The notes under the pieces were generated by a model, which was given only the letters and a program-made list of their open reading frames with translations, did no database searches and was not told where the DNA came from. Of a stretch of DNA of 64,000 bases, positions 2,876 through 15,058 are shown in pieces. Location of the stretch: assembly GCA_028534125.1 (NCBI GenBank), contig CM052816.1, forward strand, positions 24,554,001-24,618,000. Direction: 5' to 3'. The first letter of the stretch is position 1. The number at the start of each line of letters is the position of its first letter. The stretch is from Lama glama. Taxonomy: Eukaryota. A program made the translations under genes and the position numbers.

Positions 2876-3580
2876 AGCAAATTTTAACCTTCATTTAGGC
2901 TCCATGTAAAAATGGAAGACTCTGGGTCTGACTGGAGCCAGTTACATTCTTTCCTCCCTTGACTAAGTCCTTCTGGTGACTACAGCTTGGCATAAAGTTT
3001 GGATTCCCACCCAATTTAATACTCTGTCCTTCAAAAGGAGAAATGAATCACTTGCTCAGGAAAGTTTACAGTTGCTTCATATGATTACCAAATTCATCTC
3101 ACTTTTAGATACCTGTTTTCATATCATTCGTTCTTTGAAATTAATGATTATTCCTAGCATTGAAAGTCTAAGGAAAAAGATCAAAAGCCTTGAGGAGGCT
3201 CAAGACCCTCAAAAAGCCCGCATATAGTGGGTTGTTTTTTTTTTAATAAAAACTTAACTTAAAAATCCATTTGGGCATTAGGATCATACAGTCACAAGCC
3301 TGCAAGATAGACCTGCCTCAAGTTGAATTTCATGTTGCAGCATTAGAGAAAATAGTGTTCAAGGAAAGCATCAATATCATATACAACTCATTGTTCAGAC
3401 AAAAGGATGTAAAACCCAATTGAAAATCTCTCTTAAGGTTTCCTAAGAGAACTTAAACAACAATGACAACAAAGGGTGTGTGTGGTAACCCAGAGCTTAT
3501 TTGCTTCTTTGACTAAGATCGCTAGTCAGATTCTGCTCATGGGGAGGCATTTGAGCCCAGATGGAGACTGATTTACTAGG

Positions 3581-4280
3581 TTTTTTTTCCCCTTCCCCCA
3601 TTTTTTTTACAACAAAATTAGTCACTTTTATTGAAAACAAACATCACAAATAAGTGTGCAAAATTAAATTTCATGATTAAATGCACAATAAGTAGCATGT
3701 ATACTTTACATTGAAATCCACATATAAAGTTACTTGATTACATGACAGTAAAAGAACTGGCAAAACAGAACGTGCTGCTGCAGATTTTAAATGTTTGCAG
3801 TCTGAAACCGAAACCATAAAATTAAGTTTAAAACGAATTTAAGAAAGTTAAATGTATAGCTGAAGTAGCACTACCAAGGTAAAGCCCATAACCTACTTTA
3901 GTTACCAAATGTTAAAAAATATTTTATGGGGAGTTGAGATGCAAGTAGAAATCACCCAGTATTTCATTTCTGGGGAATCCCTCTTGTTATTTAGTTTTCT
4001 TTACTCTAGGGTGGCATCTGGATTTACACAGCATTTTATTCTGTTCAGCAGCCTCTTGGCTTTGATTGTGCAGTCAGTACTCTGCCTTCATTTTTCTTCT
4101 GTCAGTAAACTACCTCTCTGGAACAACTGCCTGGCAAACAAATTGGGTCACACATGCTTGTCTGTAAAACCGACAGCACATCACATCCTCCACGCAACGT
4201 TGCGCAGATCAACCGTGTCAGAGGCCCAGCATTATCACGTGATTGTTGTCCTTAGTTCTGTGTTTAGCAAGAAATGACTT
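3581..4280 (-). pseudogene. Putative 5'-truncated processed pseudogene (3'UTR-type sequence) of an unidentified mRNA
   Basis: Minus-strand AATAAA (3632-3627) followed 18 nt later by a genomic A8 run and a second A8 run; upstream sequence is unique and U-rich like a 3'UTR, with no repeat family I recognise; 5' boundary uncertain. Confidence 0.5.
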
Positions 4281-4689
4281 AATTTCCAGTGGGTGAGTTT
4301 AACCCTTAAATGGAAATTTGCCACAGCCTTAAAAATGAGGGGCTATGCAGTGGAAGAGATGCAGATTGCTCACTCACTGCTGTTCTCTCCTGGAGTAGCC
4401 AGCAGAACTGATTAATGCTGAGAATCTAGGAGATTTCTTATACCCCCCACCCCCACCCCTCCAACAGCTTACTGGCTCGCACAGACTTCCTAAATGGGCA
4501 TTCACTAATAATAGCATTTTAACAAGTCCAGGGCTGATGGAGGCAGAGCAGAACCTGTGATTACCTATTTTTTTGAAAGGACAGCTGCAGGGGTTAGAGT
4601 CCTTGTTCTGCATTCAATCTAAAATAGCCCATTCACACTTCAATCTTTATGAAATTCATAAAGTTTTGTTCTGGGTTCAACACACAGTC

Positions 4690-5835
4690 TTCCTCTCATC
4701 CAAGGCCAACCCAGCTGAGTGCCCAACTTGGCAACAGCCTTTGACATAGCGTCCTTCCTCTGTGGGCCAACCAGCCATTTAGGGGCAAGACTCTTAACTT
4801 CCAGCATGAGGGGAAAGAGATTTGCCTTTGGAATAGATATGTGTTCTTGATATTGATCTGCCTGCCTTGTCCATAATGTTTCTGCCTTAGTCACTATCAT
4901 GGTGTCTTCATCTCATAATACTTCTGATCAAGGAGCTTGTGTCACAGCAAAAGAATTTCAGCAGAGGGCCAGTGCCAACAGAATCTACTGGTTTTTACCA
5001 CATAGTCCATCACTCAGAAGCTGCTGGCTTAATAAGACAATGGCATGGTCTACTGAAGGCCCTGTTCGACTACCTGTTAGGAGAGACACCCTGAAAGCAT
5101 GGGGTTCTATCTTACAGGATGCAGTAGATGCTATAAAGCAGAAACTGACATATGTGTGCCTCTGCTGTAGGCATGGGTCCAAGAGTCAAAGTTGGAGGTG
5201 AGAGTGGATCCTTTCACTATTACAACTAATAACCCACTTGTGGAATTCTTGCTTCCCATCCCTGCAGTTTTGAGCTCTGCTTGTTTAGAGGTTTTGGTTC
5301 CCAACATACATGTTTCCATTGAACTGGAAACTAAGACTGCCCGATACCTGTTCTGAACTATTAATGTACTTGAACTAACAGGCAACCAACAACTGCAACA
5401 ACAAAGGTGGGGGGAGGAAGAAGAAAGAAAAGAAAGGCCCTGAGAATTCAGATCCTGCAGGAATAAAGGTTTGGGTTACTTCACCATGTAAAGAATTGTG
5501 ACCAGTTCTTCTGGAGAGCAAAGATGAAATGGGTAGTAGAAGATGGAAGATGGAAGAAGATTATGAATACACCTTTCTGATTAGTTACAGAAATGAAGAC
5601 TAAAGCAGGTGTGCATATTTTCTTGCTTTGTGTGTGTGTGTTATTGTATGTGCGTGCATTTGTGTGGTATGTATATTGTAAATGTATGTACAGTAACAAT
5701 TTTCTTCTTTTCTCTTTATTCTCTTTAATACTCTATATCAGTTTTGTTGGAAGCTAACTTTACAATTTAGTCACTAGGGAATGGAATAGTCAGATGGCAC
5801 TGTGACCAAATTTGAGGAATAATTAACAATAATTA
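4690..5835 (+). mobile_element. ERVL internal remnant (integrase and 3' internal region)
   Basis: SDQGACVTAKEFQQRASANRIYW, EAAGLI and DTLKAWGSILQDAVDA resemble ERVL integrase (SDQGTHFTAKEVQQWA...EAAGLIERWNG...WGKVLQKAVYA). Confidence 0.85.
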
Positions 5836-5841
5836 GTTGCA

Positions 5842-6835
5842 TTTATTTTATTTTATTTTAATTCAAACTTTTAGAGGAGCTTTGAAATAATTATTTTTCC
5901 GTTCTTGGTCCAGTTACATAAAGAAATGGCCCCTCAAGTTACAAGACAAGAAGACAGGGCCAGGCACTAGGGAGAGGAGAAGGAGGTGGCTGAAAGGGCT
6001 GGAGGCCTGGGAGCCACGGTCCACTCCTGGGGGTGGGGGTTGGGACAGGATTGCTTCTGCCCGCTTCAGGTACTCTCTTCCTCAACCGTCCCTGTGGTCA
6101 GGGAATGGGTCACTGGGGTCTCCCTGAAGCAGGATGTGCAGCCATCCCAGTAGCCCTGCAGGGCTGGGTGCCTGCCTTCTCCCGCAGGGCCTGGGTGAGG
6201 AGCTCTGTGGCTCAGCTCAGATAGGCAGCGCAGGTCCTCGCTCCTCTTCCTCTTCCTGCCCTCCTGGCTCCCAAGGTTTCAGGTGTAGCCTTTCAAACTG
6301 CCTGCATGGCTGCCAGCTCACCTAGGCCGGTAGGACTGAGGCCAGCACCTTCTTCCTTGGAGAAGGGGTCCAAGAGGGCAAGCCCAGTCCGGTGAGTGGG
6401 CCTCGGCAGGGGCAACTGGATGCCTCCTCTGTGCCCCCACAGTTAAAGAGGAGCTCCAGGGTCTACTGGGCAGCCTCATAAGGCAGAGAATGAGCTCCTG
6501 TGGGGGCGATGTGGGGATCAGAGAGGGTGGCAGGATGTGCAGGTCCTTGGACACCTGGGAGGGCTGGGTCACCTCCCCGCCCACGATGAACTAGAGTTGC
6601 GGGCTGTTGCTGAGTGCCGGGATGTGCGCGGTGAAGGGAAGCAAATCCTCAGCCCCCTTTCGCGACTCCTTGATTGATTAAATGATCCGTAGTCCGGGAA
6701 CCACAGAACACCTGGGCGCGGGGCGTGGGGCGGAGGAAAGCAGGGGTCTCTGGAAGGAGGCGGAGGCGGAAGAGGTTGCGCTGGGTGTGGGCCGGCGTTG
6801 GCCCCGTATTCACACGGCTCGTGCAAGTTGCTGTG
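5842..6835 (-). pseudogene. SNX15: 5'-truncated processed pseudogene of sorting nexin 15
   Basis: Minus-strand frames give HTQRNLFR..PAF..PRAQVF, RKGAEDLLPFTAHIPALSNSPQL, GGEVTQPSQVSKDLHILPPSLIPT, LELLFNCGGTEEAS, DPFSKEEGAG, PWEPGGQEEEE, ATELLTQALR, ALQGYWDG and EYLKRAEAIL, collinear with recalled SNX15 (PX and MIT domains). No introns, several stops and frameshifts, SNX15-like 3'UTR (gtaactggaccaagaa) and a degenerate poly(A) (ATTTT)n at 5842-5862. Confidence 0.9.
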
Positions 6836-7075
6836 TCACAGAGATGGAGACGACGAACGGGACTTTGCATCTCACCATTTTCAGGTGAGGATGAGGGTAT
6901 CTTCCTTTGTATGAAGTGTAGTTGCGTTTCGTTAGAAACAGTGGTGTTTCTCTTCGCGTGAGAGCTCACGTTTATATTCAGAAGGGATGTGTATGGACGC
7001 TGCGTAGCCAACCCTGAGGCTGGTAGCCAGTATTGAAGGGATTCTGGCCCCGCTGGAAGCCGGCGCTTCTCGACT
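6578..7075. promoter_or_regulatory. CpG-island-like segment with GC boxes, candidate promoter
   Basis: About 35 CpGs in about 500 bp (manual count); GGGGCGTGGGGCGGAG at 6720-6735; GGCGGAGGCGGAAG at 6759-6772. Confidence 0.55.
6836..7020 (+). mobile_element. ERVL internal 3' terminus, resuming after the SNX15 retrocopy
   Basis: cagagatgga...gggactttg...tgtatgaag..tagttgc...gaaggg.tgtgtatgga.gctg.gtagccaa resembles the recalled pre-LTR end of ERVL internal consensus. Confidence 0.65.
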
Positions 7076-7590
7076 CTGCCTTGTGATGCTAATGTTAAGA
7101 CTTCAAACCATATTTCTGTTTTGCCAGTTGCTCCCTGTTAGATTCTGCTAACAGGAGGCCTTAGGGAGAGCCCATGAGGCTGGAAGGGAAAAAGGGATCG
7201 CTCGGTCCTGTTCGCTCCCTCAGAACTTCCTAACTTCTTGTTCCATTGAGTGTCCCCCTATCCTCACGTCTTCAGCCTGGCAATGGCAGTGCGTTTCTGG
7301 AGCAGCAGCTGGATCCAATTTGCAGTTTTCCTAGATTGCAGAACCAGCCTCTTTACACCCCGTCCGGGACGTTAGTGCCACCTGGTGTGCCCCTTCTGCA
7401 GGGTAGTGGGGACTGACTTTCAGCCCCGGGAGCCCCTCCTGAGCTTCTAAGCTTTGAAAGTTTCAGCCACTTCTCTCCTGTTCCCCCCACACTTGGGGTT
7501 GCTCCCTCCATGGTATCTTAGTGTTCTGTTTCCCCTTTCTGTCACCAAATTGACAGTTCTTTTTTTCAAGGACTGATTCAGAGTCCTTGA
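7021..7590 (+). mobile_element. ERVL LTR (LTR33-like), 3' LTR of the interrupted element
   Basis: Begins gtagccagtatt; contains tgtgatgct...aaacca.atttct..tttgccag.t.gctccctgttag.ttctgc.aa.agg, as in recalled LTR33-family consensus. Confidence 0.65.
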
Positions 7591-7599
7591 CTTTAAATT

Positions 7600-9345
7600 T
7601 TCTCTGGTGTGGGAATTTCCATCCAAGATGGAGTAACGGGACTAGATTTGACTTCAGGTGTGTCAGAAGTTGAACAACAGCCGAAGTAAAACCAATAAAT
7701 CACTGCAGTGATAGAATTTTATCATGCACACACCAAAAAGACAGTTCATGACCCAGGAGCGCTCAAACCAAACAAGGAATGAGGCTCTGCTTTGAGGCTC
7801 AGGTGTATATTGTTACAGAGCATCTTACACAGTGGGAAGGCAATGACTCTTTTTCATAGTGATTGGTTATAATATTTGAATTTTCTTAAATGATAGAACT
7901 GGTCAGTGTTGACCTCACATCATCGCTGAGAAACAGTTTAACTTTTGCTTATAATTTCCAGAGGCATAAACAAGAAATGACCCAGGGCAAGTGAGTCTTG
8001 TAGAATAAACTAAATTGAGCTTTGCTACTATGACTAAACTTTTTTTGCCTGCTCAAGGAATTTTCAAGGCAATCTACATTTGTTTTTAATACCTGAAACA
8101 AACAAACAAAAATCCAGACAAAATATATAAACAGTATTTTTCAAGACGCTCAAGATCAGGTTATGAAGGACAGTTAAAGCCTGAGAGAAGAGAAACAATG
8201 GAGGTGAGCCCTCCGATTGCCCCATCTGACTTCTTGGAGAGGGCGTTCAGGCTGTGGTGCAGGGAGGGAGCCCACGGAGAAGGCGGCTGCAGAGATGGAG
8301 GTGGGAGAAAGCCCAGGTGACTAGAGTTTGCAGAGCAGAGTATTCAGGAGGAGGGAAGCTCTCTTTGAAAGACACTGAGAGTGAAAGGACAGGCCACAGT
8401 CTGGGAGAAATTATTTGCAAATCCCATCTCTGATGAAAGACTTTTATCTAGAATATATAATAAACCCTCAAAGCTCAGTAATAAGGAAATAGTCCAATGA
8501 AACAATGGGCAAAAAATGTGAACAGACCCCTTGCCAAAGAAGGTATACAGATGCTGTCAAACAGCATGTGAAAAGATGATCAGCATCAGTAGTCGTTAGG
8601 GAAATGCAAACTAGAGCTACAGTGAGATACCACAGCACACCTAGGGTGGAAACTCTAAAATTTAAATGACTGATCATATCAAGTTGGTGAGGATGGAGAG
8701 GAACTGGCACCTCATACACTGCTGGTGGGAATGTTAGATGGTACACTTTGGAAAAATAGCTTGACAGTTTCTTAACAAGTTAAACATATACCTGCCCTAT
8801 GACCTAGCCATTCCTCTCATAGGTGTTTACCCAAGAGAAATGAAAGTGTATGTCCAGAAAGAGGCTTGTACTGAAGTGTTCATAGCAGCTTTATTTGTAA
8901 TAAACAAAAACTAGAAACAGCCTACATGTTCATCCACAGGCTGATGAGTAAACAATTTGCAGTGTATATATACAATGGAATACTGTTCAGAAATAAAAAA
9001 GAATAAATTATTGAAAGGGGCAAGAAGTAGATAAATCTGACAAGAATTATTCAGAATGAAAGAATCCAGACAAAAAAATAGATACTGTTTGGTTCCATTA
9101 ATATAAAATTCTAGAAAATGCAGATATATATAGACAGAAAGCAGATCTGGGGTTGCTTGAGGATGGGGGCTGTCAAGGGGGCACAAGAGAGAACTTGCAG
9201 AGGAATTGCTTTTCGGGGTGATGGGTGTGTTTTTAATCTTGAGTCTGGTGATGGTTTCACAAGAATATATTTATGTCAAAAACTGTACATTTTAAATGTG
9301 TGTACATTATTGTATATAAATTTTACCTAATAGAGGTGTTAAAGA
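7600..9345 (+). mobile_element. Old L1 (L1M-type): 5' end joined directly to ORF2 end and 3'UTR, with a nested LTR at about 7657-8090
   Basis: caagatggagtaac 5' motif; from about 8360 ORF2 C-terminus (ctgggagaaa.tatttgcaaatc) and 3'UTR to about 9345. Confidence 0.75.
7657..8090 (-). mobile_element. Probable ERV LTR nested in the L1 5' end
   Basis: Interrupts collinear L1 5' sequence; contains gattggtta (CCAAT on the minus strand) and LTR-like composition; family not assigned. Confidence 0.4.
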
Positions 9346-13819: not shown

Positions 13820-15016
13820 GCATTTTAGCCAATGAGCATTTATTAAAAGCCAGGGGTGCACCAGGCACAGTTCTTGTGCAGCAGGCTAGCAAATACAAAT
13901 GATGTAGCCAATTCACTTGTTAGTTTATCTGATTAAACAAAATACATTTCATAGAAATGATTATAAAATGCATTGTAGATAAACGGAATATCTTTTATAT
14001 TACAGATCTTAGGGTACCTAAATAATTATTAATAAAAACCAGCCAACCCACATGGTAAATAGAAGTTAGCAAACCACCAGTTACATATTTTAGTCAGCAA
14101 AAGAGAAAAACATGCTATCATCATGCTGCACTGGGTTTCAGCATTAATTACGGACATCCTGTTCCGAAATGAACATAGTCCACGTACATTCTTAAAAATT
14201 CAATGTTTTTCATCTGGTTTCAAATCAGTATTATACTTTTTGTTTTAAAGATTAGTTCTGGTTTCAAAGTAAGTTTAATTTAGTGCTTTAGTCTCATGTC
14301 TCACAGATTCGTGATCTGGGGAGAATCAGTCCTATTAAGTATTAGTTAGAGGAACAAAACATAAAACGGGATAGTTTAATCTGCTTTGCTTGATATTTTT
14401 GCCAATATTCAACTGACAAGATACAAGGTGACTTAAACCAGAACATAATAGCAGAAGGAAAAAGACCCCAAAACTAAAAATGTTATTTATTTGAATCAAA
14501 TCTATCCATTAGAGCTTTTTTTTTTTTCCTTCACTTTTTTGGCAAGTCATGGCAAACTCTTTCAAGGACCATATCAAGTTTGTTGGCACATGATATATCC
14601 TTTAGTTTGAAGGCTGGTTAAGCGGGCTATATGGGGAGAAGAGGAATGTGGGTAGGACTTAAAAGGCACGGAGTGGAGTGTGTTTGGTGACACAGTCACA
14701 ATAACCCACTGAACCACACTCATCCAAGAGTGACCACTGGGCCCTTCCTGAGACCTCCAGAGATGGGTCTGTTTTCTTCAGGCAGCAATACTGAAAACGT
14801 CCTCAGAGAGTCAAGGTCCACTTTTATTGCACAGGAACCAAAATTGTCCCCCTTTCCCCCTTTCCTGAGCCAGAGACCTCCAGGGGCAAGCATGGCTGGG
14901 GTTGCCCGTCCGCTCGCTCCTCTGGCCGACAGGGAGTGCTCCACCAGAACACCTCGGGGAGCACCTACTTGAAAGGGAAGTGCGAGGTATTCCATTAGCC
15001 CAAGCAGTCTGGCCGG
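13820..15016 (-). other. GRAMD2B: GRAMD2B 3'UTR (distal end uncertain)
   Basis: Non-repetitive, increasingly AT-rich sequence after the stop codon; minus-strand AATAAA at 14823-14828, 14486-14491 and 13839-13844, ATTAAA at 14274-14279. Confidence 0.6.
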
Positions 15017-15058
15017 TCAGTCCCCATTCTCAAGCAGCTTTTGTAAGTTGTTTTGTAT
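15017..15058 (-). CDS. GRAMD2B: GRAMD2B exon 14 coding part (42 bp): IQNNLQKLLENGD*
   Basis: Acceptor tattatttcaag; TGA stop at 15019-15017; matches recalled human C-terminus. Confidence 0.95.
   Translation of the reverse strand: MQNNLQKLLENGD

Follow-up and report, generated by a model that had tools for sequence, protein, structure and literature searches.

A CpG island spanning a dead SNX15 retrocopy and an old ERV: a candidate germ-line-open element of the camelid lineage

The origin of CpG islands and clustered GC boxes from nothing is usually studied statistically. A dead gene copy in which one third kept its CpGs and acquired motif-copying duplications, while the other two thirds decayed normally, serves as its own control. 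Such a copy of SNX15 lies in the 64,000-nucleotide stretch of DNA analysed here (the window), and we asked why its 5′ third became part of a CpG island, which the original prediction had read as a new promoter. The sequence features presented here suggest that the island is probably a TF-bound open element, unmethylated in the germ line and fed by mutation, which would act as a weak non-coding promoter or enhancer.

The island (6578..7075, assigned to neither strand) comprises the 5′ end of the retrocopy, a 3′ segment of an ERV and the start of a probable LTR. About 35 CpGs in some 500 bp, against about 11 in 680 bp of the same retrocopy, had been reported, and our recount agreed. The island contained 36 CpGs in 498 bp (GC 0.568) and the neighbouring part of the retrocopy 11 (5898-6577, 680 bp; o/e 0.17, GC 0.613). 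The o/e of the island, for which a value below 0.6 had been named as evidence against the prediction, was 0.936 by sequence count, compared to 0.227 for the whole 64-kb window; relative to this window value, the CpG count gave a Poisson p of about 5e-12. Among 128 tiles of 500 bp across the window, the island tile carried 32 CpGs, its neighbour 14 and the others at most 12, and the density reached its maximum at 6600-7000. Within the retrocopy, 22 CpGs fell inside the island and 11 outside (p=2e-6, binomial on the C x G expectation), while on the ERV side 14 CpGs were found in 6826-7075 (250 bp) versus 3 in 4850-5840 (991 bp; p=6e-6), both comparisons having small counts and island boundaries chosen after the CpGs were seen. 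Since the excess is present on the ERV side too, the island ignores the borders of the elements. The Takai-Jones thresholds are a length of at least 500 bp, a GC content of at least 55% and an o/e of at least 0.65. The span 6578-7077 (500 bp, GC 0.568, o/e 0.93) lies within them, its length only just attaining 500 bp, as does the wider span 6578-7430 (853 bp, GC 0.552, o/e 0.70). In a different part of the window, tile 2001-2500, inside an L1-like 5′ region, combined a GC content of 0.58 with zero CpGs and represents a fully decayed counterpart to the island.

The words of 5600-7700 were present at 0.94-1.00 in 14 of the 24 sequencing runs listed, from four organisms. Seven of these runs were a possible source of the sequence and another shared a sample with one of them; these were set aside and, given the near-complete presence of the words in the six further runs, the stretch is no assembly error. 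Four RNA-labelled runs (0.06-0.15 of the words) and two runs from a fifth organism (0.21-0.24) were counted neither for expression nor as an orthologue. No coding ORF or RNA family was found at the island: Pfam gave no match for four translations, including two island ORFs, and Rfam none in 6500-7700. Single-strand folding of 6670-6840 was ordinary (z=+0.65).

The retrocopy, located on the minus strand at 5841..6825 by protein matches, is intronless and 5′-truncated, covers about aa 58-349 plus the 3′ UTR and is interrupted by frameshifts and stops. Its identity was established by a match to PDB 6ECM (E=3e-8), three SNX15 proteins and frameshift alignments, in agreement with the earlier description of a dead SNX15 retrocopy. 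It runs unbroken over the SNX15 isoform splice points at aa 228/229 and 314/315, indicating that it lacks introns. A decayed poly(A) tail (TTTAT x3.8, minus strand) was present at 5841..5860, and candidate target-site duplications (AGTTGC, plus strand), only 6 bp long but at the expected junctions, were located at 5835..5840 on the left and 6826..6831 on the right. We also considered 6826-7030 as a hyper-diverged SNX15 N-terminus and rejected it, the alignment score being 16.1 and that of 58 control tiles 13.6 on average, with a maximum of 21.0. As the DNA beyond 6826 lacks the missing N-terminus, the copy is 5′-truncated; the SNX15 stretch in the island is no part of a first exon, since the isoform junction at aa 34 precedes it. 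The absence of introns, the poly(A) remnant, the short target-site duplication and the 5′ truncation are those of L1-made processed pseudogenes, so that the insertion itself was ordinary and only the later fate of the 5′ third is unusual. At 6452-6495, most of SNX15 aa 153-194 is missing (about 80 nt net), which could reflect an unannotated parental splice form and not a later deletion. Among metagenome contigs, none of 499 pattern matches contained SNX15 DNA.

To the left of the retrocopy, homology identified a decayed, CpG-poor ERV (4850..5834, plus strand; o/e 0.08) with an integrase remnant and 3′ internal sequence, which we take to be ERVL-type. The integrase remnant had 17 protein relatives; one of the ten scanned against rve matched it, below the cut-off (E=0.008). 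A young element in metagenome contigs (L001 and L003-L006) was 62% identical to the region 4897-5414 at the DNA level (560 bp aligned), and the matches continued collinearly to about 5690. Both features of ERVL-type membership, integrase homology and collinear 3′ internal sequence, are thus present, and the assignment of the left flank to an ERV appears solid. In all five contigs this element, which is ERVL-like and presumably similar to mouse MERVL, is host DNA, and its copies are 99.6-99.9% identical. The ERV motif scan returned no viral contig and six metagenome loci, five of them these near-identical copies and one unrelated; the copies are too distant to be of use for polarising the CpGs of the ERV tail. 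In addition, a 59-aa ORF (P0229) was 75% identical to the integrase remnant of the window and shared its odd residues; it could represent the orthologous ERV copy of a relative.

To the right, the 3′ internal segment of the ERV probably continues at 6832..7010 (plus strand), where the sequence is CpG-rich (10 CpGs in 6826-7010, o/e 1.05). This part was assigned from one weak match of 29 bp (19/29), located just ahead of the LTR of L003, with p about 0.01-0.02 (9 of 500 shuffles and 8 of 484 window tiles scored as high). It is followed by a probable 3′ LTR (7011..7560, plus strand), a CpG shoulder (13 CpGs, o/e 0.34) which did not match the LTR of L003 and which, we assume, resembles LTR33. The island does extend beyond the retrocopy, as predicted, with 14 CpGs on the far side, and the 29-bp match, which lies at the expected place, makes the sequence there a putative continuation of the ERV of the left flank. 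The shoulder raises an alternative in which germ-line promoter or enhancer activity would really belong to the LTR, with the island as a hypomethylated shore beside it and the retrocopy as no more than the supplier of CpG-capable sequence. The o/e of the LTR is indeed above the 0.08 of the left ERV part, ERVL-class LTRs reportedly drive germ-line transcription, and sloping shores are known for hypomethylated CGIs (PMC4509998, in excerpt). However, the CpG peak at 6600-7000 is not within the probable LTR, the insertions and GC boxes are in the retrocopy, at a distance of 250-350 bp, and on its left the island begins sharply at 6578. We consider this account, which fits less well than an open element centred on the retrocopy end, very unlikely.

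The coding origin of the copy allowed the fate of individual CpGs to be followed, with the camel SNX15 protein (P0126) as a stand-in for the ancestor. It is usable as such because the PX domain hardly varies: 21 eutherian proteins agree at 77 of its 90 residues. At CpG-capable sites, with ambiguous codons left out, the ratio of CG to TG/CA was 9:4 in the island (28 sites) and 3:23 in the rest of the copy (86 sites; Fisher p=0.0005). Such retention argues for the germ-line hypomethylation that the original prediction had proposed. Among 19 classed island CpGs, 11 fitted the parent protein, 3 lay in insertions and 5 were forced to be new, of which only 6627 was free of alignment doubt; kept and gained CpGs are inseparable at most sites, because a parent protein carries no synonymous states. 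We propose that CpGs were retained over three pieces of different origin because methylation was absent. Could the same pattern have arisen in an inert remnant, that is, a chance cluster in methylated DNA formed by an Arg-rich, CpG-rich coding piece and slippage in GC-rich repeats? The PX part has many Arg codons, which hold four of its kept CpGs, the parental comparison was made at the protein level, without synonymous states, and retrocopy 5′ junctions can be scrambled on insertion. Nevertheless, the remaining copy, whose GC content is just as high (0.61), decayed (3:23) and shows losses of bases only, and 14 CpGs are found beyond the retrocopy; relative to the window o/e, the Poisson p of the island's CpG count is about 5e-12. 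An inert remnant, which also fits less well than hypomethylation, is thus highly improbable.

Insertions and deletions were distributed unevenly along the copy, with four insertions and one deletion in the island versus none and ten in the rest (p=0.004; 3/1 versus 0/9, p=0.014, when neither the junction insert nor the large deletion is counted). In the island part, 6 and 12 nt were inserted, a third site gained net 10 nt and the junction about 19 nt, while a single deletion removed 3 nt; aa 63-125 occupied 214 nt compared to 189 parental nt. In aa 126-338, by contrast, insertions were absent, small deletions numbered nine, and the one large loss covered aa 153-194, which may reflect a splice form; an indel at aa 341-344, which was a deletion in one alignment and an insertion in another, lies outside the counted range. 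The inserts, whose presence in parental SNX15 would have spoken against the prediction, were absent from all six aligned SNX15 proteins, camel and alpaca included, in this protein-level comparison. Regarding their description, the second insert was 12 nt long, not 11, and a further net +10 nt and a 10-nt repeat were present. Most inserts were tandem copies of adjacent letters (unit identity 6/6, 6/7, 4/4 and 8/10), in a region whose general tandem-repeat count was unremarkable (3 in 253 bp, at the 90th percentile among tiles of the window).

Specifically, the 12-nt insertion (6724..6735, plus strand) can be read as a 7-nt (6/7 identity) and a 5-nt tandem duplication of parental sequence, the latter recognised by eye. 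It builds the paired GC/GT boxes at 6720-6735 and adds G-tracts to a loose G-quadruplex motif at 6714-6746, one of nine such matches in the window. The 6-nt insertion (6763..6768, plus strand) is an exact tandem duplication that creates GGCGGAG. The net +10-nt insertion (6678..6687, plus strand) lies in a scrambled stretch (6670-6706), and beside it a 4-nt tandem repeat yields TGATTGAT at 6671, which we take to be a PBX-like motif. Finally, the junction zone (6784..6823, plus strand; net about +19 nt) carries an imperfect 10-nt tandem repeat (8/10) at 6784-6803, in a segment whose alignment to the parent was not above controls.

The tandem Sp1/KLF GC boxes reported at 6720-6735 and 6759-6772 were confirmed exactly at these positions, each motif being unique in the window. 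By consensus matching, the island contains both GGCGGAG of the window and its only GGGGCGTGG, all created by the duplications, and two of its eight GGGCGG/CCGCCC; a third GC box, GGGCGG (6573..6585, minus strand), lies at the island edge and may be partly parental. The claim that promoter motifs had been gained stood for the GC boxes, which arose by insertion, but not for the ETS-like core, which falls on codons L69-F70-R71 in accordance with the parent protein and was therefore inherited. A candidate splice donor, CAG|GTGAGG, was found by consensus at 6882..6890 on the plus strand, 40 nt past an ATG at 6844, and could mark the end of a short plus-strand first exon; the pattern MAGGTRAG had 11 matches over both strands of the 64 kb. 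If the site were used, the ATG, which has a fair Kozak context and is followed by 13 codons up to the donor-like site (6844-6884), would open a short first-exon ORF. Thus, GC boxes and a downstream splice donor, both features of CGI promoters, are present as consensus matches. The positive G-skew of the plus strand was set aside, because it is supplied by the C-rich coding strand of the parent. An enhancer-like or non-productive open site would match these features as well as a promoter would. We consider a germ-line-open element quite probable, whereas such an element together with real promoter activity is possible but rather doubtful.

Substitutions were also more frequent in the island. 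Fixed-letter codon positions of conserved residues had changed at 13 of 89 sites, compared to 11 of 172 in the rest (p=0.04), and at 19 of 99 (p=0.002) when ambiguous columns were added, the alignment being ambiguous at 6678-6706 and 6746-6758. Despite the small counts, the local substitution rate is raised as in germ-line HMR births. This increase could also have come from a PRDM9-independent (default) recombination hotspot, where gBGC and break repair would have built an island with no regulatory function. Default hotspots lie at hypomethylated regions in many placentals (PMC11161765, in part), and the sole ERV match has two TA/TG dinucleotides of L003 opposite CG in the window. A/T-to-G/C changes were found at 5/44 positions in the island and 3/69 outside (7/50 with ambiguous columns), an excess that points in the same direction but was not significant (p=0.26 and p=0.09, respectively). 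S-to-W changes were raised as well (4/45 versus 6/103, not significant), and the equilibrium GC of the island (0.53-0.56, versus 0.43 outside) is below the present 0.62. Since there is no significant A/T-to-G/C bias, gene conversion alone is unsupported. Moreover, a hotspot requires hypomethylation anyway, and it therefore supplements rather than replaces a hypomethylated open element; the main text of PMC11161765 does not mention camelids. Overall, we regard a hotspot without regulatory function as decidedly unlikely, while gBGC at a default hotspot may contribute.

Comparison with 16 SNX15 proteins indicated when the copy was inserted. G201 of the retrocopy is common to camel and alpaca only, and K254 to camel only, the alpaca isoform skipping that exon. 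At positions 134 and 138, the retrocopy has the general state, from which camel and alpaca both differ. M244 of the retrocopy is the non-artiodactyl state and conflicts with the others; one later change would explain it. Because G201 and K254 are shared while 134 and 138 are still general, insertion on the stem camelid branch is likely. If 2e-9 substitutions per site per year are assumed, the 3′ part, which has diverged by 6.4%, would be roughly 30 million years old.

These observations can be arranged in a possible sequence of events. An L1-type insertion placed a 5′-truncated SNX15 mRNA into the old ERV in opposite orientation, presumably in the stem lineage of camelids. Around the 5′ junction, some 500 bp would then have escaped germ-line methylation, which would have preserved the CpGs there while those in the remaining two-thirds of the copy decayed. 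The same stretch acquired 4-12-nt tandem duplications and 2-3 times more substitutions, possibly because bound open sites break in the germ line and are misrepaired. These duplications added GC-box sequences, and Sp/KLF binding to these might help to maintain the unmethylated state. As a last, candidate step, a plus-strand RNA would start near 6780-6830, be spliced at 6884 and run toward the 3′ end of a GRAM-domain gene.

The published accounts cited here, most of them consulted in excerpt, describe comparable footprints. Insertions of 5-20 bp, often motif-duplicating, are enriched at spermatogonial TF sites, and motif clusters may arise there neutrally (Kaiser et al. 2021, PMC8559717); hypermutation of all classes occurs at testis-active TSSs, lncRNAs included (Qiu et al., PMC13712754). 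In births of lineage-specific sperm HMRs, substitution rates are raised outside CpG too (Qu et al. [quoted passage not shown] The footprints at our locus fit such germ-line-bound regulatory sites and testis start sites, the links to chromatin being indirect. One observation counts against an open element: among 104 human-specific intronic CGIs with copies elsewhere, about 75% were fully methylated in monocytes (Rademacher et al., PMC4122923).

Each of these systems differs from the SNX15 copy in some respect. Sperm HMR births and orphan CGIs are likewise distal, lineage-restricted, CpG-enriched, raised in substitution rate and overlapping with retroposed DNA, according to the available part of PMC5793779; here, hypomethylation is deduced from sequence, and the known ancestral protein makes the island events readable singly. 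The spermatogonial sites resemble our locus in that GC-rich motifs are copied by short tandem duplications within a focused site. That study, as excerpted, used rare human variants at existing sites, where common insertions were depleted (PMC8559717), whereas several insertions here look fixed, the element began as coding sequence, one unit (4 nt) is below 5-20 bp, and the pattern is known from sequence alone. Retrocopy-derived CGI promoters such as PPP1R26P1/CpG85 in RB1 (PMC4122923, in part) are also CGIs on retrocopied coding sequence with a potential new start site, and such start sites on retrocopy CGIs are likewise found among new promoters of retrocopies located at orphan CGIs (Carelli et al. 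2016, PMC4772013, in part). Unlike both, our copy is intergenic, dead and 5′-truncated, spills into ERV DNA and can express no protein. PRDM9-independent hotspots with gBGC (Joseph et al. 2024, PMC11161765, in part) resemble it as CpG-rich sites of accelerated change, hypomethylated there and presumably here, and differ in that the W-to-S bias here is not significant. That retrocopies can bear CGIs and that new promoters can arise at orphan CGIs was thus known already from the accessible text of PMC4772013 and PMC4122923. Searches of the open-licence literature returned nothing on an SNX15 retrocopy or on the present locus, and the part of bioRxiv 10.64898/2026.06.26.734816 available to us does not treat CpGs.

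Altogether, the locus is a real and well-dated case of a process already known, in which an island that is lineage-specific and presumably hypomethylated is born; by itself it establishes neither a new gene nor a new mechanism. By analogy with the literature, the motifs made by local tandem duplication may be a neutral by-product of germ-line protein binding. If germ-line openness is true, the island would be a clean case, fixed in a lineage, of the neutral motif duplication proposed from rare human variants, and retrocopies would provide a general test set for insertion versus deletion bias inside and outside islands. A bolder and unlikely version is a promoter that built itself: a mid-gene stem-camelid retrocopy with no inherited promoter would have become an open site, where breakage duplicated and fixed Sp/KLF boxes, deletion switched to insertion and CpG retention spread into the ERV, finally giving a camelid-specific spliced non-coding RNA that converges on the GRAM-domain gene. 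As the ancestor is a near-invariant protein domain, each of these steps would be datable across camelid genomes.

The neighbouring gene lies on the minus strand, with an exon encoding a GRAM domain, the stop of its last exon near 15020 and an AATAAA at 13839. Its end is 6.8 kb from the island and points toward it, consistent with the predicted position of about 7 kb past the 3′ end of a gene which we take to be GRAMD2B. On the other side, 3 kb from the island, 3580-4500 contains T-runs at about 3580-3610, an AATAAA at 3627 on the minus strand and, past it, AU-rich sequence; the region resembles either a 3′-UTR-only retrocopy or a minus-strand transcript's 3′ end. An exact 16-bp inverted match between 7114-7129 and 3755-3770 (E=0.02) is probably due to chance.
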